From Alphaproteobacteria bacterium (GTDB lineage: Bacteria; Pseudomonadota; Alphaproteobacteria; CACIAM-22H2): 64,000 nt of DNA. Below, piece by piece: positions 56,741 to 64,000 of this stretch (its first letter is position 1; each line of letters opens with the position of its first letter). The stretch is taken from assembly GCA_041690495.1 (NCBI GenBank), contig JAWLHE010000004.1, positions 341,730 through 405,729 on the forward strand. The letters are read 5' to 3'. The translations under genes were made by a program, and so were the position numbers. The notes under the pieces were generated by a model. That model saw only the letters and a list, made by a program, of their open reading frames with translations. It did not search any database and was not told the DNA's origin.

Positions 56741-56925
56741 TCGGGTTGCGGGGTCTAGCCAAGCTTCAGGATAGCACCGCCGGGCGCGGCGGCAAAAGCG
56801 CGGCGCCTCAAGGGGCTAGTCACGCCTGCGCGAGCCGCCGCCGGCTCGCGGGCGGATGCGAGCGGGGTGTTGGCAGGGCGACGCCTTGGGCTGTATGGTG
56901 CGCCGCCTGCACCGCAGGGCGAGCC

Positions 56926-57015
56926 GGAGGGATGGCCGAGTGGCTTAAGGCGCACGCTTGGAAAGCGTGTTTACGGGCAACCGTAACGTGGGTTCGAATC
57001 CCACTCCCTCCGCCA
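56926..57015 (+). tRNA. tRNA-Ser (anticodon GGA), 90 nt with long variable arm
   Basis: Hand-folded cloverleaf. Acceptor GGAGGGA/TCCCTCC is followed by discriminator G and encoded CCA. The anticodon stem CACGC/GCGTG carries loop TTGGAAA. The variable arm is 18 nt. The T-arm is GTGGG-TTCGAAT-CCCAC. Confidence 0.9.
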
Positions 57016-57139
57016 GTCATATCCGTAAACTATAACTAAATCAATGTATTATAGTGGAATTCGTTAACGGTTGGCGGGCATACCCACGCCCGTACCCACA
57101 ACGCCTCCACCGCTACTATCGGAGCCTGCACCGATACTG

Positions 57140-58312
57140 ATGTCGAAGAAAGTTCTGTTTCAGGGCGTTACCCCCGACAATCATTTAGCTGCCGTCCGGC
57201 AGGTCCTTTCGATTCCAGATCCGCAAAGGCTCCTCATAAGTGCAGCGTTCATGAATGAAGCGGGCTTGACGTTGCTCGAAGAAGCCCTGGCCCCGGTCGC
57301 CACTCACACAACAATCCTCGCCGGGATTCGCAACGGCATTACGTCGGCCCAAGGGCTTCGGAAGAGCCTCGCGATTGGCTGCTCCACTTACGCGGTGGAT
57401 ACTGGATCGCGCACAGTGATCTTTCACCCGAAAATCTACTATTCGCGGAACGAGAATGAGGCGCGCCTTATCGTCGGCAGCGCGAACCTCACGATTGGGG
57501 GCCTAAACGGAAACATCGAGGCGAGTCTGCTCCTGACGCTTGATCTTGATGACGAGGAAAACACGGCGCTTGCCGACGAGTTGGAAGAGAAGATCGACGG
57601 GATGATCGCCGAATACGAAGAGCATGTCTTCGTTGTGCCGGACGAAGCGATGATCCAGCGGCTGCTCGATTCCGGCAGACTCATCGATGAATCCCTTGTC
57701 GCTGCGCCCACGCCGTCCGGCGCATCAAGGGATCGCGATCTCGATACCGTGCCACGAATGAAGCTCAAGACGAGGGCTATCCTACGACCGCGTGTGCCAT
57801 CTCTTCCGGCACCGCCTGCACCCGCACCGCCCGCCCCTGCGCCTGCAGGCATTGCGGCACCGGTCCGGAAGAGGCTCGCGCTCGTGTGGGAAAGCAGCCC
57901 GCTCACGCGGCGTTATCTGACCATTCCGACCGGAGAGAACACGAACCCGACCGGTTCGATGCTCTTCGCGAAAGGGGCAATGAAGGATATCGACCAGAGG
58001 CACTATTTCCGGGACGAGGTGTTTGCCGGACTGGACTGGCACTTCGACACGGCTGCCGGACGCGAGCATATGGAACGGGCGGAAGCCCGGATTCAGCTCG
58101 TCATTCGGGACGTGGATTATGGCGTTTTCACGCTGCGGCTTTCGCATAACAGCCGCACCGATACGCGCGCCTACGAGCAGCGCAACAGCATGACACAGCT
58201 TCATTGGGGAGAGGCGCGTCCGTTGGTCGCGCGCGAAGACCTTCTCGGTCGGACAATGTATCTTTATCGGGACGAAGTAGACGAAGGCTTGTTCGTGATG
58301 GAAATCGACTAG
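57140..58312 (+). CDS. phospholipase-D-family (single HKD) nuclease with Pro/Ala linker and C-terminal domain of unknown fold; candidate restriction endonuclease
   Basis: Internal ATG MSKKVLFQG of ORF 57071..58312. The HKD motif TVIFHPKIYYSRNENEARLIVGSANLTIGGL fits HxK(x4)D...GSxN. A linker PAPPAPAPPAPAPAG is followed by a about 170 aa C-terminal domain. The gene converges on the MTase with a 4-bp overlap. Confidence 0.6.
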   Translation: MSKKVLFQGVTPDNHLAAVRQVLSIPDPQRLLISAAFMNEAGLTLLEEALAPVATHTTILAGIRNGITSAQGLRKSLAIGCSTYAVDTGSRTVIFHPKIYYSRNENEARLIVGSANLTIGGLNGNIEASLLLTLDLDDEENTALADELEEKIDGMIAEYEEHVFVVPDEAMIQRLLDSGRLIDESLVAAPTPSGASRDRDLDTVPRMKLKTRAILRPRVPSLPAPPAPAPPAPAPAGIAAPVRKRLALVWESSPLTRRYLTIPTGENTNPTGSMLFAKGAMKDIDQRHYFRDEVFAGLDWHFDTAAGREHMERAEARIQLVIRDVDYGVFTLRLSHNSRTDTRAYEQRNSMTQLHWGEARPLVAREDLLGRTMYLYRDEVDEGLFVMEID

Positions 58313-59943
58313 GCCGCCTCGGAGGAAACCCGGTGCCGCCTATCCCGTAGCTTCTTCCAGCCACTCATCAGTTCGTCCTGATCCGGCTTGGAAACACCGA
58401 TCGCGCCAAGAACAATCCTGCCCTGCCGCTCGAGAACCGCATCCATCGGCATCGACCGTATTGCCTTATCGAGAGATTCCAGTTTCGGTTCGATCTTTTT
58501 CGGGGCTGGAACTAGAAGCCTTTCGATTTCCGACGGGATAAGTTCAAGAACGCCACCGCCGTAATGACGGCCCTCAAGTTCAGCGCTCAGGGCCGTCAGC
58601 GGATTCATAAACCCAAATACAAGCTGGTCCGCCGAACCTTCCTTAACCGTGATGCGGTAGGCGGTGTCAGTCGTGTAGGCGCGCAGTCTGTTTAGAATCA
58701 GACGCGGCGTGTCGTGGCAGCGTTTAAGCATGCCGACTTCGGTCGCATAAACAGAGGGTACGGTGTACCAAGGGCTGCGGATACGGCACTTGTAGCGGGT
58801 ATGAAGCTTTTCGTCCTCGCCCTTGCGGATATAGGCTTTGCCGGTGCTGGATTTTTCTACGCTGGTGTCCTGAAACCAGACGAAGTTGGTAGGATTGCCC
58901 TTGGCGGCATTAGCCCTGTGCTGCGCCTCGTCATAGATTACGCCGGGGCAATGCTCGCTGCGCCCAAACATGGGGTGCGCCCATTTGCCCAGCCTAAATC
59001 GCTCAATGACTTCATCATTAACAAGGAAGAAGCTGTTGGCACCCGTCACGATGCCAACATCAACTTCTGCAATCTCGTCAAACCGGCTGACGGCATGCTC
59101 GTCGATCAGCCCGTCGAGCAAAGAGCGCGTATGCGGCTCCAATAGCGCCCGCGTCCACTTTCCCTCAACGGTCTTCCCGTTGATCGACTGGGGAGCGTTG
59201 AATATTTCCTCAGGGTTCTGCTTGATGAAGTCGCGTCCGCGCACTGGATAAATGCCGAGTCCCTCAGCGCGGTCGCTCGGTCCTCGCTTTTTTTCCACGA
59301 GAAGCAGAACAGCCCCTTGAAGCGTCCCCGGAAACCAAAGGTCCTCGGGATCGATGACGACCAGCCGCCGGGCGTTAGCGCCTAAATATGAGCGCAGCGA
59401 CTGCGCGTGCGTGACATGGATGATCTCGGCGGGCACAACCATTGCCAGCCGACCGCCGGGGCGCAGCAGGGCAAACGATGCCAGAATGAACGGCACCCAG
59501 GCGTTGGTGTGCTTTGTGAATTTGCAGGCCAGTTCGCTAAAGATCCGCTCAGCGCGGCCTTGAAACGGCGGCGGCAGATACTGATAACGAATAAAGGGCG
59601 GATTCCCGAGCACTGCGTCGAAGCGCGCCCCTTCATCGCCGAGAGCGTCGATTGCCCAGCCCAGAAAATCACCATCCCTGATGGTGACACGCGAGAGGCC
59701 GGAGCTCTTTGCACGCTTGGAAGCCTTCCGGGCCTCGGCGCTGTTGATCTCAAAGCCCGTGACCAAAGGATTGCCAAGAGTGTCTGCGATCTTGTCGAAG
59801 AAGACCCCGTCGCCGCAACTCGGCTCCAGGATCGATTCCGGGGCGCCTTTTGCGATCCAGCGCACCAGAAAACCCGCAAGATCGTCGGGCGTATAGTACC
59901 CGCCGCGAAGTTTCTGCTCTGTCTGAAATTCTCTGAAATTCAT
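58309..59943 (-). CDS. N6-adenine DNA methyltransferase, gamma class (motif I before motif IV), with C-terminal target-recognition region
   Basis: Internal ATG MNFREFQTEQ. Motif I is ILEPSCGDGVFF (FxGxG) and motif IV is LGNPPFIRY (NPPF/Y). About 300 aa of C-terminal extension follows. Confidence 0.8.
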   Translation of the reverse strand: MNFREFQTEQKLRGGYYTPDDLAGFLVRWIAKGAPESILEPSCGDGVFFDKIADTLGNPLVTGFEINSAEARKASKRAKSSGLSRVTIRDGDFLGWAIDALGDEGARFDAVLGNPPFIRYQYLPPPFQGRAERIFSELACKFTKHTNAWVPFILASFALLRPGGRLAMVVPAEIIHVTHAQSLRSYLGANARRLVVIDPEDLWFPGTLQGAVLLLVEKKRGPSDRAEGLGIYPVRGRDFIKQNPEEIFNAPQSINGKTVEGKWTRALLEPHTRSLLDGLIDEHAVSRFDEIAEVDVGIVTGANSFFLVNDEVIERFRLGKWAHPMFGRSEHCPGVIYDEAQHRANAAKGNPTNFVWFQDTSVEKSSTGKAYIRKGEDEKLHTRYKCRIRSPWYTVPSVYATEVGMLKRCHDTPRLILNRLRAYTTDTAYRITVKEGSADQLVFGFMNPLTALSAELEGRHYGGGVLELIPSEIERLLVPAPKKIEPKLESLDKAIRSMPMDAVLERQGRIVLGAIGVSKPDQDELMSGWKKLRDRRHRVSSEAA

Positions 59944-60128
59944 TTGGCCGATCCCTTCTTTGGGGTTTGAGGGCTCGGCGTGCGCCGTTCTTCGAGGTAA
60001 CGTCCGGCGGCCTGGATAAACCATTCCTTGAGGGTGGAGTCCTCCATAGCCAAAGCGCTGTAGAGCCGCCGCTTGAGCGTGGGGTCTACGTCAACAACGA
60101 TTCGGCCTGACTCTCCTTTGGGCATCAA
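59940..60128 (-). CDS. ribbon-helix-helix (CopG/Arc-like) DNA-binding protein, candidate controller of the MTase
   Basis: 62 aa. RIVVDVDPTLKRRLYSALAMEDSTLKEWFIQAAGRYLEE is a beta-strand followed by two helices. Its TGA overlaps the MTase ATG (ATGA at 59940-59943). Confidence 0.55.
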   Translation of the reverse strand: MMPKGESGRIVVDVDPTLKRRLYSALAMEDSTLKEWFIQAAGRYLEERRTPSPQTPKKGSAK

Positions 60129-60155
60129 TGGGTTCCAACCCGACTCAGATAACTT

Positions 60156-60173
60156 ATGTTACATAGCTAACAT
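60156..60173. promoter_or_regulatory. perfect inverted repeat ATGTTA-CATAGC-TAACAT about 28 bp upstream of the RHH gene start; candidate operator
   Basis: Read directly from the sequence in an AT-rich intergenic region (60129-60435). Confidence 0.4.
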
Positions 60174-60435
60174 GAGTCGCGTGGAATCGTCCAGCGGAGA
60201 TGTCGATCCATTCTAGGCCATATCATGGCGCACCACTTGTCATGGCGAACGCCGTCCTCAATCCAACGGGGCTTGAATCGAGCTATTCCTTAATCATCGG
60301 GGCATTGACGTTCTCGTTGTAACACAAGCTCTCGTGTCCTGTGTTGCAGGGCGATCGATAAAGAAGCAAACCAGCTTGCCAGCGTAGAGAGGCAAGAGCG
60401 CCTTCAACGTGTGTAGGTTCCCATCGACGGATCGG

Positions 60436-61563
60436 TTATGAAGAACCCAAGATGCGCTCAGCGGCCGCCAATCCCTCCCGAAGTTTGGCAATGGTTTCGA
60501 GCCGCTCGGCGGGTGCGCTACCAAGGCCCTGAATTATCTCCGCCTGCCGCTCACATGGGACTTGGCCATAGCTCATGAATGTGGTCATTACGTTGTCGTG
60601 GCCGACATTCTGACTCCAGGCCTTGAACTCCTCGGGAGTCCGGCACCGCTGCTGTCCGAGCCGGATCAGCGTTTTACGGAATCTGTGCGGCGGGAAGTAC
60701 GGCATGCCGCTGCTGGTGAACGCTTCGCGGAATATGCTTCGGATCGGCGACGCGTTGCTCCAGTGCTTGCGGTCGAGTCCATCTGAGGCGAACAAGCCGT
60801 TGCTATCGACGCAGAGCCGAGTAGCCGGAAAAAGAGGATCGTCAGGCCCCCATAGAAGCGAGGTCTGCAAGTAACCGACCCAATCGGCCACGATCTCTTG
60901 AACGTCCCCTCCGACCGGAAAGAAGTACGTCACAAATGTTTTGCTGAACTTGGTGCGGACCTCACGGGCGTCCTGCACTACCCGTCCCTTAGACAATTCC
61001 ACGTGTTTCAGCTTGAGAGATGCCAACGCGCCGTCGCGCACTCCGGTAAGTATCGTGAAGGCAATGAGAGCTCGATTCCGCCGCTCGATAGCCGTAGCCC
61101 GTGGCATGGAAGCAAGGACGTATTTGACCTGCTCGACCGTGGGAACGGGCTGTTCCCGGGTCGCCTTCGCCACTCGCATCTCCTTTTCGGAAAGATTGAA
61201 ATACTCCGCGTCTGCATAGCGAAGCCGGGAACGGAACCCCGGTTCTCCCGCGAGCCATTGGAAGAACTTCTTGAGCGCGGCGAGGGTCGAATATCGGCTG
61301 GCCTCGCTCAGTCGCCCTTTGGCGCGCCGGCTGTCCTGCTGTGCGAGCTGCTTCTTGAACGCGATCGCCTGTTGGATGTGGAACGACCGGAAGTCCCGAT
61401 ATTTCGTGTAAACCTCGAACTTATGCAGCGCGGATGCGACTCCATCCAGAGAGGAGTCGCTGTAACGCTTGGCCTCGCGCAGATATGAAAAGTACCGTCG
61501 CTTGACGCGTTCATTGTTTGGGTTGTTCGTCTGCATTGCCTTCACCCGCGTTCTCCAAGTCAC
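60436..61563 (-). CDS. tyrosine-type site-specific recombinase/integrase (375 aa)
   Basis: The catalytic region has ...ILTGVRDGALASL... (Arg), HRFRKTLIRLG (HxxR) and a C-terminal ...MSYGQV (Tyr). Confidence 0.75.
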   Translation of the reverse strand: MTWRTRVKAMQTNNPNNERVKRRYFSYLREAKRYSDSSLDGVASALHKFEVYTKYRDFRSFHIQQAIAFKKQLAQQDSRRAKGRLSEASRYSTLAALKKFFQWLAGEPGFRSRLRYADAEYFNLSEKEMRVAKATREQPVPTVEQVKYVLASMPRATAIERRNRALIAFTILTGVRDGALASLKLKHVELSKGRVVQDAREVRTKFSKTFVTYFFPVGGDVQEIVADWVGYLQTSLLWGPDDPLFPATRLCVDSNGLFASDGLDRKHWSNASPIRSIFREAFTSSGMPYFPPHRFRKTLIRLGQQRCRTPEEFKAWSQNVGHDNVMTTFMSYGQVPCERQAEIIQGLGSAPAERLETIAKLREGLAAAERILGSS

Positions 61564-62020
61564 AACTCACGCACTGTCCGTTACGACCTTCTATGTGCTG
61601 TTCGCCCTCCGGATACGTCACGTCCATATCGGACGCAATCGTCGCCAACCTGCAACGAGAGACCCGGCGATAGATCAGAGTCGAGCAGTCTGGACACAAG
61701 GCTCGAAGATTCCCGCCGGACGCCGTCAATGGCAGATACTCCGCCATGCCTTCAGCCGGCCGCCTGGGCGCGCGACACTTAACGCAATAGATTTCGCCCG
61801 GCGCACAGACTCGCCTTGCAGCAACACGTCGCTTTTGTAGGAAGGCCTGGAGATCGGCACCAAAAATCAACGTGGGCCGGCGGCGGTCGATGGCGGGCAG
61901 ACCGGACCTCAGCCAATTGCGAACCGTATTCTTATGAACGTCAAATAAGCGGCCGACCTCTTCGACCGTATAGTTTCGATGGATCTTGACCAGCCGAGGG
62001 TTGGGATTGCGGCGCCCCAT
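61511..62020 (-). CDS. HTH DNA-binding protein with C-terminal Cys-rich (zinc-ribbon-like) region
   Basis: An N-terminal HTH YTVEEVGRLFDVHKNTVRNWLRSGLPA is followed by Cys pairs CVKC...CPDC...CVSC. The 3' end overlaps the integrase start by about 26-53 bp. Confidence 0.5.
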   Translation of the reverse strand: MGRRNPNPRLVKIHRNYTVEEVGRLFDVHKNTVRNWLRSGLPAIDRRRPTLIFGADLQAFLQKRRVAARRVCAPGEIYCVKCRAPRRPAEGMAEYLPLTASGGNLRALCPDCSTLIYRRVSRCRLATIASDMDVTYPEGEQHIEGRNGQCVSCDLENAGEGNADEQPKQ

Positions 62021-62047
62021 CGCGGACCAGAATGCGATAGGCGTATA

Positions 62048-62245
62048 CTAAACGCGTCGCTTTTGGGTCTGACTGGCCTCACGTAGTGCGTTGAACCAGG
62101 CGTCGCCATCCACCGTCGCGATGATTGAACGCCTGCCAATCTTCGTGAGGTGCAGGCGCCCCTCAGCGATCTCTTGGTAAAGCCGCGTGCGGCTGATGCC
62201 GTAATGCTCGCAAGCTTCGACAATCGAAAATCCGGCCTTGTTCAT
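62048..62245 (-). CDS. AlpA/excisionase-like small HTH protein
   Basis: 65 aa. FSIVEACEHYGISRTRLYQEIAEGRLHLTKIGRRSII is an MerR/AlpA-like HTH typical of island excisionases. Confidence 0.55.
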   Translation of the reverse strand: MNKAGFSIVEACEHYGISRTRLYQEIAEGRLHLTKIGRRSIIATVDGDAWFNALREASQTQKRRV

Positions 62246-62330
62246 GTCCACCGTTCCTTTCTGCGGGATACAACCGCGTGTCGGTGAACACAATGTCGTC
62301 CAGAGAACGCCCGAAGAATATATGGTCAAA

Positions 62331-63146
62331 TCAGGATTTGCGAAAATCGCTCGCGTACATGCGGAGGATGCGCAAACGCAACGCATTGACGCTTGGGCCG
62401 TCGCCGTCCCTTCGTAGATTCAATAGCGCCAATCCCGCCACTACGAAGCGCAGCAGAGGGCCAGCCGCTCGCCCTTGTATCGAGACCGATGTTTGAACGC
62501 GGCGCCCAAGCACGTCTATCCAAATTCGCAACATGCCGGCCATAGCATCATTGAGGGGTTGACCGGTCCAAGGGTCGAGCCATCTTTCGAGGTCGTCCGC
62601 GCGTTTCCCCTTCCGCGCGCGAGTGTGGCTTTGGAGGTTGAGCGCCCACGCCCGAAGTTGGCGAATGGCGCTTATGTTGTCGCGCAACTGCGAATCGCTT
62701 TGGTAGTCCTTGAACACCTCACCGCCAATCGAGAATGTCCTCGGCGGATGGTGCTCGAAGCCATTGCGGCGTTCGCCATCTCGTTCTGCTTCCCATCGAA
62801 GCCCGTCACGTACTTGGCGGGGAACATCGATCAACTCACTGTGGCCACCGACTCCTATCGCACTAAGTAGCTTATCGGCAGCCGCCCCGATTGCGTGAAA
62901 CCGCTTTTCCAGTTTGCTCGGTGACAGGTCATTCAGATGTTGCAGATTGATTTGCGTCAGCTCATGGATGACTTCGAGTCGTTTAACGATTGCCACCGCA
63001 CGTAGGACCTCGGCCCTCTTACCGGTCTCGTGGTCGTCAATCTCAATGCTGCCCGGTGGAATTGGAGCCGCAGCACGAAGGACGCGGAGAACGTCCTCTC
63101 GGGCAAACTTTCCTGTGTAGACCGGTTCTTCCATTACGCCAGTCAC
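62331..63146 (-). CDS. hypothetical protein (271 aa), island cargo
   Basis: Long ORF with balanced composition. No recognisable motif. Confidence 0.45.
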   Translation of the reverse strand: MTGVMEEPVYTGKFAREDVLRVLRAAAPIPPGSIEIDDHETGKRAEVLRAVAIVKRLEVIHELTQINLQHLNDLSPSKLEKRFHAIGAAADKLLSAIGVGGHSELIDVPRQVRDGLRWEAERDGERRNGFEHHPPRTFSIGGEVFKDYQSDSQLRDNISAIRQLRAWALNLQSHTRARKGKRADDLERWLDPWTGQPLNDAMAGMLRIWIDVLGRRVQTSVSIQGRAAGPLLRFVVAGLALLNLRRDGDGPSVNALRLRILRMYASDFRKS

Positions 63147-63173
63147 GGCTCAGAAAGCGAGCAAGCGCGCTTT

Positions 63174-64000
63174 TTAGGCGCGAAGCCTGACGACACTCCC
63201 GCTCTTTCGCGGCGTGCCGCAGAACCTCGCCCACTCTGACATGAGGCGCCGTCGCTTCTCCAGGAGATCGCCGCGCCGATAGGCAGCCTCTACTTTGTCG
63301 GGAATAGAATGCGCTAGAGCCTGCTCCGCAACCTCGCGCGGATAGTTGGTCCGCTCAGCCGCCCAGTCGCGGAACGTAGACCGGAACCCGTGCACGGTCA
63401 GGTCGGACCGACCCATGCGATTCAACAGCGCAAGCAGCGCCATGTTGGAAAGCGGCTTACCGGACTTGCCGCCCGGGAATACCCAATCCGACAGTTGCTC
63501 CTTTTTCAGGGCTAACAAAATCCGAATGGCCCGGTCGGGAAGGGGAATACGGTGTTCGCGCCCCGCCTTAATACGGTCAGCAGGGATCGTCCACATGGCG
63601 TTCGGAAGATCGATCTCGCTCCAGCGCGCCCCGATGGTTTCGCTGGTTCGGGTGGCCGTCAAAATCAGAAACTCCAACGCTTGGGCAGCTACCCCGTCCT
63701 GGTCGCGAAGCTGACCTATGAACGGCCCGATGTCGTCATAGGGCAGCGCTGGTCGGTGAACCACCTTTTGCACCTTAGACCGGTTGGGCAGGAGGTTTTC
63801 CAGATGGCCCTTCCAGCGCGCCGGATTGTCTCCGGTGCGGTGCCCGCGCGCCGCCGCCCAGTCCAGTACCGACTCGATGCGCCCGCGCACGCGACTGGCC
63901 GTCTCGGTCTTGGTGGCCCAGATCGGCTCCAACGCCTTCGCGACTAGGCCCGTGTCAATTTCCTTGACCGAGAGCCGCCCGAATACCGGCGAGGCATAGG
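63174..64000 (-). CDS. int: P4-type tyrosine integrase, partial (N-terminus beyond window end)
   Basis: ...LILTATRTSETIGARWSEIDL...HGFRSTFRDWA...AYRRGD... gives the R...HxxR...Y catalytic set. The reading frame stays open past 64000. Confidence 0.85.
   Translation of the reverse strand, partial: YASPVFGRLSVKEIDTGLVAKALEPIWATKTETASRVRGRIESVLDWAAARGHRTGDNPARWKGHLENLLPNRSKVQKVVHRPALPYDDIGPFIGQLRDQDGVAAQALEFLILTATRTSETIGARWSEIDLPNAMWTIPADRIKAGREHRIPLPDRAIRILLALKKEQLSDWVFPGGKSGKPLSNMALLALLNRMGRSDLTVHGFRSTFRDWAAERTNYPREVAEQALAHSIPDKVEAAYRRGDLLEKRRRLMSEWARFCGTPRKSGSVVRLRA

Follow-up and report, generated by a model that had tools for sequence, protein, structure and literature searches.

A BfiI-type nuclease, an M.Eco57I-family methylase and a predicted repressor-operator pair as a probable restriction-modification system on a tRNA-Ser-linked island

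Directly downstream of a tRNA gene, the gene of a PLD-family nuclease converges on the gene of an N6-adenine DNA methylase, which is itself preceded by a small ORF and an inverted repeat. Do these elements form a restriction-modification (R-M) system with its own regulator, or are they independent neighbours? The original prediction was an uncharacterised Type II-like R-M system, and this reading is largely supported, at the level of sequence analysis, by the nuclease fold, the linkage of the genes and the conservation of the operator. We consider it likely that the window (the whole stretch of DNA that was analysed, 64 kb) carries an intact two-enzyme R-M system with its own regulator, consisting of a BfiI-type nuclease, an M.Eco57I-family methylase and a predicted repressor-operator pair, on an island linked to tRNA-Ser. 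This view builds on the gene structure, the folds, the catalytic residues, the strict linkage, the operator conservation and the sharing of a cassette with Type IIG systems, each observed here. The features of the locus are:

56926-57015, plus strand: tRNA-Ser(GGA), boundary of the genomic island carrying the module (ARAGORN)
57140-58312, plus strand: putative restriction endonuclease gene with PLD/HKD and B3-like architecture, 390 aa (391 codons including the stop)
57140-57694, plus strand: N-terminal PLD (Nuc-like) nuclease domain, aa 1-185 (Foldseek, Pfam)
57425-57520, plus strand: single HKD catalytic motif, H96-x-K98 ... GSAN116LT ... NIE127AS (alignment with BfiI)
57695-57871, plus strand: Pro/Ala-rich interdomain linker, aa 186-244, variable (pLDDT, alignment)
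57872-58309, plus strand: C-terminal B3-like DNA-binding pseudobarrel, aa 245-390, presumed sequence-recognition domain
58309-58312, no strand: CTAG, overlapping stop codons of nuclease and methylase (direct sequence reading)
58309-59943, minus strand: M.Eco57I-family gamma-class N6-adenine DNA methyltransferase, 544 aa (Pfam, PADLOC)
59940-60125, minus strand: small gene of a probable ribbon-helix-helix protein, presumed autorepressor (ORF, ATGA overlap)
60156-60173, no strand: candidate operator, inverted repeat ATGTTA-N6-TAACAT (conservation across loci)

The tRNA-Ser(GGA) lies directly upstream of the nuclease gene, and the G+C content, about 0.66-0.70 before the tRNA, is about 0.58 directly downstream of it, in agreement with the mobile element that had been proposed as the setting. 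The nuclease had been described as a protein of 391 aa; its coordinates stand, while the length is 390 aa. We place the start at 57140 and not at the alternative upstream TTG at 57071, because the homologues begin at the same Met.

The translation contains FHPKIYY...GSANLT...NIEAS followed by the Pro/Ala linker, and the four catalytic residues of the predicted single HKD motif, H96, K98, N116 and E127, are invariant across 41 homologues. They align with H105, K107, N125 and E136, given as the catalytic residues of BfiI in PMC4081073. The AF2 model has a pLDDT of 81, falling below 50 in the linker at aa 207-244, and the linker is also the least conserved and most indel-rich part of the homologue alignment. 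In a Foldseek search the PLD domain matches BfiI (E 2.3e-10), SauUSI (2.4e-9), NucT (2.5e-5) and Nuc (1.1e-4), and also Zucchini and PLD3; for the whole protein the best PDB fold matches are BfiI, the PLD domain of SauUSI and the NgoAVII R-protein. The HKD domain groups with the nucleases BfiI, SauUSI, NgoAVII, Nuc, NucT and Zucchini rather than with lipid PLDs. The C-terminal region, in which no motif had been recognised, is modelled as a B3-like DNA-binding pseudobarrel, the domain that BfiI-type enzymes carry at this end. BfiI is the top PDB match both by sequence and by fold, which agrees with the BfiI-like build suggested originally, and the similarity in sequence, confined to the HKD region, is marginal, with E 0.004 and an identity of about 16%. 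The Pfam matches to PLDc_2 (E 5.5e-5, 23.4 bits, gathering cut-off 27) and RE_NgoFVII (E 0.0019, 18 bits, cut-off 23.8) stay under their thresholds, no PADLOC REase model covers the full length and those for REase_II align with no more than about 65 residues. The nuclease therefore represents a distinct sequence family with the BfiI architecture. A total of 802 homologues were found, the best 120 of them nearly all full length, and no characterised member of this PLD-B3 family appeared in the literature searched.

The nuclease and methylase genes overlap by 4 bp, both stops falling within the palindrome CTAG, just as first read. No terminator-like site was found between them; the overlapping stops leave no space for one. 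The 544-aa methylase has the motif order EPSCGDG, then NPPF, and its assignment to the gamma N6-adenine class can be refined to the M.Eco57I family: M_Eco57I_C (PF22837) matches with E 5e-90 and 302 bits against a cut-off of 27, N6_Mtase (PF02384) and Eco57I (PF07669) also exceed their cut-offs, and PADLOC MTase_II PDLC03267 matches over the full length with 625 bits. On the K. pneumoniae plasmid pMJ4-2, an Eco57I-like Type IIG system has a methylase that is 53% identical over the full length, and the colinearity extends through the C-terminal domain. Methylases separated by about 53% identity can have different specificities.

Among about 185,000 species-representative genomes, 264 contain relatives of the nuclease. 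Linkage was studied in the best 80 loci, drawn from Chloroflexota, Alpha-, Beta- and Gammaproteobacteria, Spirochaetia, Acidobacteriota, CPR bacteria and one archaeon. The methylase adjoins the nuclease gene in 79 of these and is convergent with it in 78, so it is not an orphan.

The small gene encodes 61 aa from its ATG, or 62 aa if translation begins at the TTG at 60128. Its stop codon, TGA, and the ATG of the methylase gene overlap in ATGA, the translational coupling read in the sequence from the start, and the same overlap is seen in most loci that carry the gene. A gene of this family sits at the equivalent position in 26 of the 80 loci, Pfam RHH_1 proteins take the place in 10 others, and about half lack any small regulator gene, so the regulator is dispensable. 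In three of three additional contexts examined the family precedes the same methylase family.

What kind of protein is it? The 61-aa product has no match in Pfam, NCBIfam or the PDB, and no HTH family matches it even when E values up to 10 are allowed. Its family comprises 2,124 members with 13 invariant positions and has no Pfam model; the sequence pattern of the protein is strand-helix-helix. The HicB-like phrog_9151 weakly matches the C-terminal region in seven of 14 family members (best E 0.018), other weak matches are to RelB/DinJ (0.063) and ParD (0.089), and one UniRef name within the family reads 'CopG family'. Aligned by hhalign with the RHH_1 proteins found at the same position, the family is in register at a non-significant E of 0.095. 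For the ribbon-helix-helix (RHH) protein of 62 aa that had been predicted, the length thus depends on the start codon, and the fold, judged from these weak matches to antitoxin families, is probable, not proven.

The inverted repeat ATGTTA-CATAGC-TAACAT lies upstream of the small gene, 30 nt from its ATG and 27 nt from its TTG. It is present as predicted, but the conserved unit is a 9-bp palindrome, ATGTTACAT (60156-60164, consensus ATGTWACAT), flanked by ATGT/ACAT half-sites, and not the 18-bp repeat. Perfect 6+6+6 inverted repeats number 39 in the window, so this one is not significant alone; what makes it significant is that it is conserved across loci. The exact ATGTWACAT occurs once in the window. 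Upstream of 25 homologous small genes it is found 17 times in 2.6 kb, compared with once in the other 920 kb, an enrichment of about 6,000-fold; the copies ahead of the small genes lie at -24 to -43 relative to the ATG. In several loci it overlaps or abuts promoter-like elements (TTGAC-N17-TATGTT or TAnnAT); the window itself yielded no sigma-70-like promoter. Proteins of the RHH superfamily typically have a palindromic or repeated operator at the promoter of their own gene, and this element would be such an operator.

If the small protein is a regulator, which gene does it control? In many Type II systems a dedicated controller delays the nuclease (PMC3874152, PMC2632904, PMC6237814), and the small protein could accordingly be a C-protein-like activator of the nuclease gene. 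We find this very improbable. The small gene is co-transcribed with the methylase and not with the nuclease, whose promoter lies on the opposite strand at a distance of 3 kb. In every locus with this regulator, the 250 nt ahead of the nuclease gene lack the motif, and the overlap of the motif with the promoter-like -10 of the regulator in several loci is the geometry of a repressor. We therefore describe the protein as the presumed autorepressor of the methylase operon rather than as a classical C protein, because its gene precedes the methylase and not the nuclease.

The C proteins (C.PvuII, C.AhdI, C.Esp1396I, C.Kpn2I) resemble it in being small DNA-binding proteins of R-M modules with a palindromic operator at their own promoter, which is presumed here. 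However, they are HTH proteins whose genes usually precede the nuclease gene in the same transcript, and they act as activator-repressors at C-boxes, whereas the island protein is RHH-like and coupled to the methylase gene, and ATGTWACAT is unrelated to C-boxes. A classical C protein was considered and rejected, on the missing HTH match, the ATGA overlap and the location of the nuclease gene on the other strand. An RHH protein in the controller position had been regarded as unusual, which holds relative to the HTH C proteins; it is not unique, since at least two unrelated RHH families precede the methylase in other loci, and such a protein also recurs in Eco57I-type Type IIG systems.

The nuclease invites two other readings. 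The NgoAVII R-protein combines a PLD domain with a B3-like domain (PMC4267654), and the island nuclease could be the R subunit of such an ATP-dependent enzyme that needs a separate ATPase/helicase. When all ORFs of 90 aa or more in the 80 loci were clustered, no third conserved gene family emerged beside nuclease and methylase, the next genuine neighbour family being present in just nine loci; there is therefore no conserved ATPase partner. In the window, the stretch from the tRNA to the recombinase genes likewise has no ATPase gene, and BfiI matches better, both in sequence and in fold, which makes this reading very unlikely.

NgoAVII and CglI are ATP-dependent PLD-B3 restriction enzymes for GCSGC; the R-protein gives significant fold matches to the island nuclease, but these enzymes require N.NgoAVII or H.CglI as the separate subunit. 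BfiI/BmrI, on the other hand, are metal-independent Type IIS enzymes of the PLD family for ACTGGG and, like the island system, have no ATPase partner. Size (358 aa in BfiI, 390 aa here), the order of N-terminal single-HKD Nuc-like domain, linker and C-terminal B3-like domain, and the catalytic H, K, N and E, including the NIEASLLL stretch, are also shared. The differences are the low overall identity, a recognition domain of different sequence and presumably another target, and the partners: BfiI is accompanied by two cytosine methylases, whereas the island nuclease has a single M.Eco57I-type N6-adenine methylase and, upstream of it, an RHH-like regulator with its own predicted operator.

We give equally little credence to a modification-dependent (Type IV-like) or other defence nuclease that happens to lie beside an independent, non-protective methylase. 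The second-best fold match of the PLD domain is the Type IV enzyme SauUSI, B3-like domains are found in LlaJI.R1 too, and there are weak PADLOC matches to ZacB, DrmC and PbeA; the latter, however, span only about 30-70 residues around the HKD motif. Adjacency as strict as that observed, across phyla, with tight convergent spacing and co-conservation of both genes, is the pattern expected of a cognate toxin-antidote pair, and a nuclease attacking the product of its neighbour methylase would be self-lethal.

The upstream part of the system is found in other company. On plasmids of Klebsiella and Acinetobacter, the same unit of presumed repressor, operator and methylase accompanies Eco57I-like Type IIG nucleases; in the pMJ4-2 system the small upstream protein is 55% identical and the operator, ATGTAACAT, is the same. 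Given that this palindrome is kept there and enriched at a fixed distance, that the small family is large, has invariant positions and recurs before the same methylase family, and that recognised RHH_1 proteins substitute for it elsewhere, it is highly improbable that the ORF is a leader peptide or spurious and the repeat due to chance or a mere promoter element, as the missing database matches, the many chance repeats and the loci without the gene might suggest. The Eco57I system (R.Eco57I and M.Eco57I, CTGAAG / CTNNAG) shares the methylase family PF22837 and the length of 544 aa, and pMJ4-2 has the same kind of convergent layout. In contrast, the nuclease there is a fusion of about 1,000 aa of PD-(D/E)XK, gamma methylase and target-recognition parts, compared with 390 aa of PLD-B3 here.

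M.Eco57I is reported to be CTNNAG-specific and to methylate both strands (PMC3874165). By analogy, and from the 53% identity to the pMJ4-2 homologue, our guess is that the island methylase most likely targets CTNNAG or a close sequence and that the nuclease would read a subset of CTNNAG sites. For M.DfeI, too, CTNNAG m6A activity is on record (PMC4752239 supplement).

On these grounds we propose how the system may work. By analogy with BfiI, the single-HKD domain would pair with a second copy in a homodimer to form one active site, and the nuclease would cut near its site, independently of metal and through a covalent phosphohistidine intermediate, with the flexible linker joining the catalytic domain to the B3-like domain that would read the DNA. 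The methylase would protect host DNA by N6-adenine methylation. The small protein, probably as an RHH dimer, would bind ATGTWACAT at its own promoter and repress the regulator-methylase operon; upon entry into a new cell the methylase would be made at full rate until the repressor builds up and brings it to a maintenance level. Reduced transcription of this operon could also relieve interference with transcription of the nuclease, because the genes converge, their stops overlap and there is no terminator.

Characterised metal-independent PLD-type restriction enzymes are few (BfiI/BmrI, NgoAVII, CglI). This widespread family, with more than 800 protein clusters, would supply a second independent BfiI-like enzyme of different specificity for studies of mechanism and for engineering. 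It would also illustrate modular R-M evolution, in which a regulator-methylase cassette is common with the textbook Eco57I system and the nuclease is swapped for one of a different fold, and the observations predict a family of non-HTH R-M regulators with a stated operator sequence. More tentatively, and less likely than not, the unit of regulator, operator and methylase may be a portable self-regulating cassette, adopted independently by the Eco57I Type IIG fusions and by the PLD-B3 family. If so, the small protein would found a class of non-HTH R-M regulators acting via ATGTWACAT, the PLD-B3 proteins would make up a large and so far untapped family of enzymes that cut a subset of CTNNAG independently of metal, and nuclease timing would be indirect, via convergent transcription and not a C-protein switch at the nuclease promoter.

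The closest models for the small protein are the RHH autorepressors (Omega, ParD, RelB, the HicB C-terminal domain, CopG). They are alike in size, in the beta-alpha-alpha pattern, in being encoded by the first gene of an operon and in having a repeated or palindromic operator at their own promoter. The match to them is not significant in sequence, and the controlled protein here would be a DNA methylase and not a toxin-antitoxin pair, but the weak matches of the small protein fall on exactly those families.

In the window, a tRNA-Ser(GGA) gene is followed by a nuclease gene that converges on an M.Eco57I-type methylase gene, with a small ORF before the methylase. The coordinates originally assigned to the three genes of this module and to its inverted repeat were borne out on reading the window:

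56926-57015, tRNA-Ser(GGA), directly before the drop in G+C
57140-58312, plus strand, nuclease gene, 390 aa; homologues start at the same Met
58309-59943, minus strand, methylase gene, 544 aa, convergent with the nuclease gene
59940-60125, small ORF, 61 aa from its ATG; its TGA overlaps the methylase ATG
60156-60173, inverted repeat ATGTTA-N6-TAACAT

The palindrome CTAG is common to both stop codons of the convergent genes. A sigma-70/terminator scan of 56900-60500 found no intergenic terminator and, by the sigma-70 consensus, no promoter.

Homologues of the nuclease form 802 clusters at 90% identity, the best 120 of which are nearly all full length, and relatives are present in 264 species-representative genomes. 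Cultured carriers include Shinella daejeonensis JCM 16236, Chitinibacter tainanensis DSM 15459, Acetobacter syzygii 9H-2, Burkholderia lata R-18110 and Yoonia sp. BS5-3. The best 80 loci cover many bacterial phyla and one archaeon. A full-length methylase homologue (47-78% identity) directly adjoins the nuclease gene in 79 of them, convergently in 78, and the sole unlinked locus is a truncated contig. Co-inheritance as strict as this, in so many phyla, is what marks a cognate R-M pair, as had been proposed, and it counters the alternative that the nuclease is a Type IV or unrelated enzyme merely lying beside a methylase. Clustering of all ORFs from the 80 loci gave no other conserved gene, which rules out an ATPase partner of the NgoAVII/CglI type. 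Only one of the 79 linked pairs is in tandem on the same strand (L062, 2426-5413). More than 40 putative PLD-type enzymes of unknown organisation are already noted in REBASE (Type II review, PMC4081073), which makes genes of this kind unsurprising.

By sequence, the nuclease has only marginal matches. The Pfam models PLDc_2 and RE_NgoFVII both score under their gathering thresholds, the PADLOC models match only the surroundings of the HKD motif, and BfiI, the top PDB sequence match, is marginal (E 0.004). The residues H96, K98, N116 and E127 align with H105, K107, N125 and E136 of BfiI, which form its catalytic site (PMC4081073), and are invariant in an alignment of 41 nuclease homologues. The AlphaFold model built from this alignment (pLDDT 81) has two folded domains separated by a disordered Pro/Ala linker. 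When the model is compared with the PDB by Foldseek, BfiI comes first (E 2e-10), followed by the SauUSI PLD domain and the NgoAVII R-protein, and then by Nuc, NucT, Zucchini and PLD3. The C-terminal 151 residues, modelled separately (pLDDT 90.5, pTM 0.84), give EcoRII-N, EcoRII and BfiI as top matches with weak E-values. The central claim of the original prediction, a BfiI-style fusion of PLD and B3 domains, thus holds at the level of the fold, as seen by Foldseek on the AlphaFold models; despite the common fold, the nuclease is a sequence family separate from BfiI.

With few exceptions, the B3-like domain forms the C-terminus of proteins about 380-400 aa long. A free-standing B3-like protein of 144 aa, without a PLD domain, is encoded on the Lysinibacillus capsici plasmid pFN9A (NZ_CP106863; locus L089, 4019-4453) and is 35% identical to the B3-like domain of the nuclease (aa 243-389 of the window protein). 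Its gene is divergent from that of a 549-aa M_Eco57I_C methylase, followed in turn by a "DNA methyltransferase" longer than 1,000 aa. The recognition domain thus seems to accompany the M_Eco57I_C methylase family whether or not a PLD domain is attached.

The methylase of the window matches the Pfam families M_Eco57I_C (302 bits), N6_Mtase and Eco57I, and the PADLOC Type II methylase model matches it from end to end. A homologue of 541 aa (611 bits to M_Eco57I_C), encoded on the K. pneumoniae plasmid pMJ4-2, is 53% identical and colinear with it, C-terminal domain included. Its gene is convergent with that of an Eco57I-type Type IIG protein of 998 aa, which has HSDR_N, Eco57I and N6_Mtase domains, and the same arrangement is present on an Acinetobacter plasmid. 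R.Eco57I has 997 aa, and M.Eco57I methylates both strands of CTGAAG through a degenerate specificity, CTNNAG (Loenen et al., PMC3874165). Going by this specificity and the 53% identity only, our guess would be that the methylase targets CTNNAG or a close sequence, of which the nuclease may read a subset. In the methylome supplements of Blow et al. 2016, Chitinibacter, Thiohalocapsa, Nitrospina and Devosia are not represented; only M.DfeI (CTNNAG) is listed. Of all hexamers, CTCGAG is the one most strongly depleted in the pooled flanks (535 kb); hexamer depletion says nothing on the recognition site, since the twelve most depleted hexamers are all generic palindromes and the window alone lacks power.

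The family of the small 61-aa protein has 2,124 members and no Pfam model. In 26 of the 80 loci the small gene stands before that of the methylase, and almost always the two share the ATGA overlap that had been noticed in the window; the protein is again found before the methylase-nuclease pair in three further contexts (Brucella, Nitrospina and one metagenome). It had been predicted to be a ribbon-helix-helix (RHH) controller. The strand-helix-helix pattern of the sequence agrees with this, and the weak matches are only to antitoxin families that contain RHH domains (the HicB C-terminal region in 7 of 14 members, RelB/DinJ and ParD), those in PHROGs being HicB-like only. However, no significant match was obtained in Pfam, NCBIfam, PADLOC or PDB sequence searches, and hhalign places the family in register with RHH_1 proteins of the same genomic position without reaching significance. 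On these sequence patterns, an RHH fold is probable.

Proteins above the Pfam RHH_1 threshold hold the same slot in ten other loci, upstream of the methylase and with the ATGA overlap (L038, L040-L042, L044, L060, L073; L057, L064, L072). An RHH protein annotated by PGAP is in this slot in a Type IIG-like system on a Xanthomonas citri plasmid (L092, 3720-3914). The RHH_1 family is unrelated to the 61-aa family, so the regulator slot has been filled more than once. About half the loci have no small regulator gene and others carry HTH-like or LexA-like genes there; regulation is therefore an exchangeable add-on. In four loci from CPR bacteria and a Woesearchaeota MAG (L036, L047, L055, L059), the ORF that precedes the methylase on the same strand, at a distance of 16-54 nt, resembles a LexA/S24-peptidase-type repressor in its sequence pattern; it may represent a third type of regulator or be a mere neighbour.

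The inverted repeat proposed upstream of the small gene is present but is not significant alone, as the window contains 39 perfect repeats of this kind. Its 9-bp core, ATGTWACAT, is conserved across loci: the 2.6 kb of sequence preceding 25 small genes hold 17 exact copies, always at -24 to -43, against one copy in the rest of these loci (920 kb). The window has a single copy, at 60156-60164. The case for this candidate operator is made by phylogenetic footprinting and not by the single repeat. ATGT/ACAT half-sites flank the core, and several loci have a TTGAC-N17-TATGTT or TAnnAT promoter that overlaps the motif or lies right next to it. In the loci with this regulator, no copy of the motif lies within 250 nt upstream of the nuclease gene, which rules out that the regulator controls the nuclease promoter directly by this motif.

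The Klebsiella and Acinetobacter Eco57I-type systems have the same small protein (55% identity) and the same motif; no regulator of such systems is reported in the literature searched. In both plasmids (L088, 3780-8692, in pMJ4-2, and L091 in Acinetobacter) the ATGTAACAT operator lies within a longer near-perfect palindrome before the M.Eco57I-like methylase.

The closest known relatives are BfiI and BmrI, which have the same architecture and catalytic residues and likewise no ATPase partner; the system of the window differs from them in its distinct sequence family, its single M.Eco57I-type adenine methylase and its RHH-like regulator. Because it has no ATPase, it is not NgoAVII/CglI-like. 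The regulator departs from a classical C protein in three respects: it is not of the HTH type, its gene is coupled to that of the methylase, and the nuclease promoter lacks its motif. Neither the pairing of a PLD-B3 nuclease with an Eco57I-like methylase nor an RHH-type R-M controller appeared in the literature searched, an incomplete set with REBASE outside it.

Beyond the architecture, catalytic residues, linkage, operator conservation and cassette sharing observed here, the nuclease would, by analogy with BfiI, form a dimer via its PLD domain, with a single active site, and cut near its recognition site without metal ions, while the methylase would protect both strands. The small protein would repress its own operon, so that much methylase is made when the module enters a new host and little later on. 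As the genes are convergent, with overlapping stop codons and no terminator found, lower transcription of the methylase operon might, speculatively, also relieve interference with transcription of the nuclease.

Directly behind the tRNA gene the G+C content drops from about 66% to about 58%, and it does not recover before the window ends. This drop, and the recombinase and excisionase-like genes of the low-G+C stretch, indicate that the module is island-borne:

60436-61563, XerC/D-like tyrosine recombinase gene
61511-62020 and 62048-62386, two HTH_17 (excisionase-like) genes, the first overlapping the recombinase gene by 53 nt
63174-63932, second integrase (tyrosine recombinase) ORF

The second integrase has matches to the catalytic domain and to just the end of the Phage_int_M domain, so that it looks N-terminally truncated. 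A search of 56900-64000 for direct repeats of the tRNA 3' end gave none, and no att repeat of the tRNA end is present inside the window, which places the far end of the island beyond it. A 271-aa island ORF (62331-63146, minus strand) has no match in Pfam, PADLOC or NCBIfam. In three unclassified Brucella loci (L081-L083) the same three-gene module adjoins TrbL and NikA-like conjugation genes, and the right flank varies by sample, being an iron-transport operon or an Arm-DNA-binding integrase fragment; these flanks are consistent with carriage on a conjugative element.
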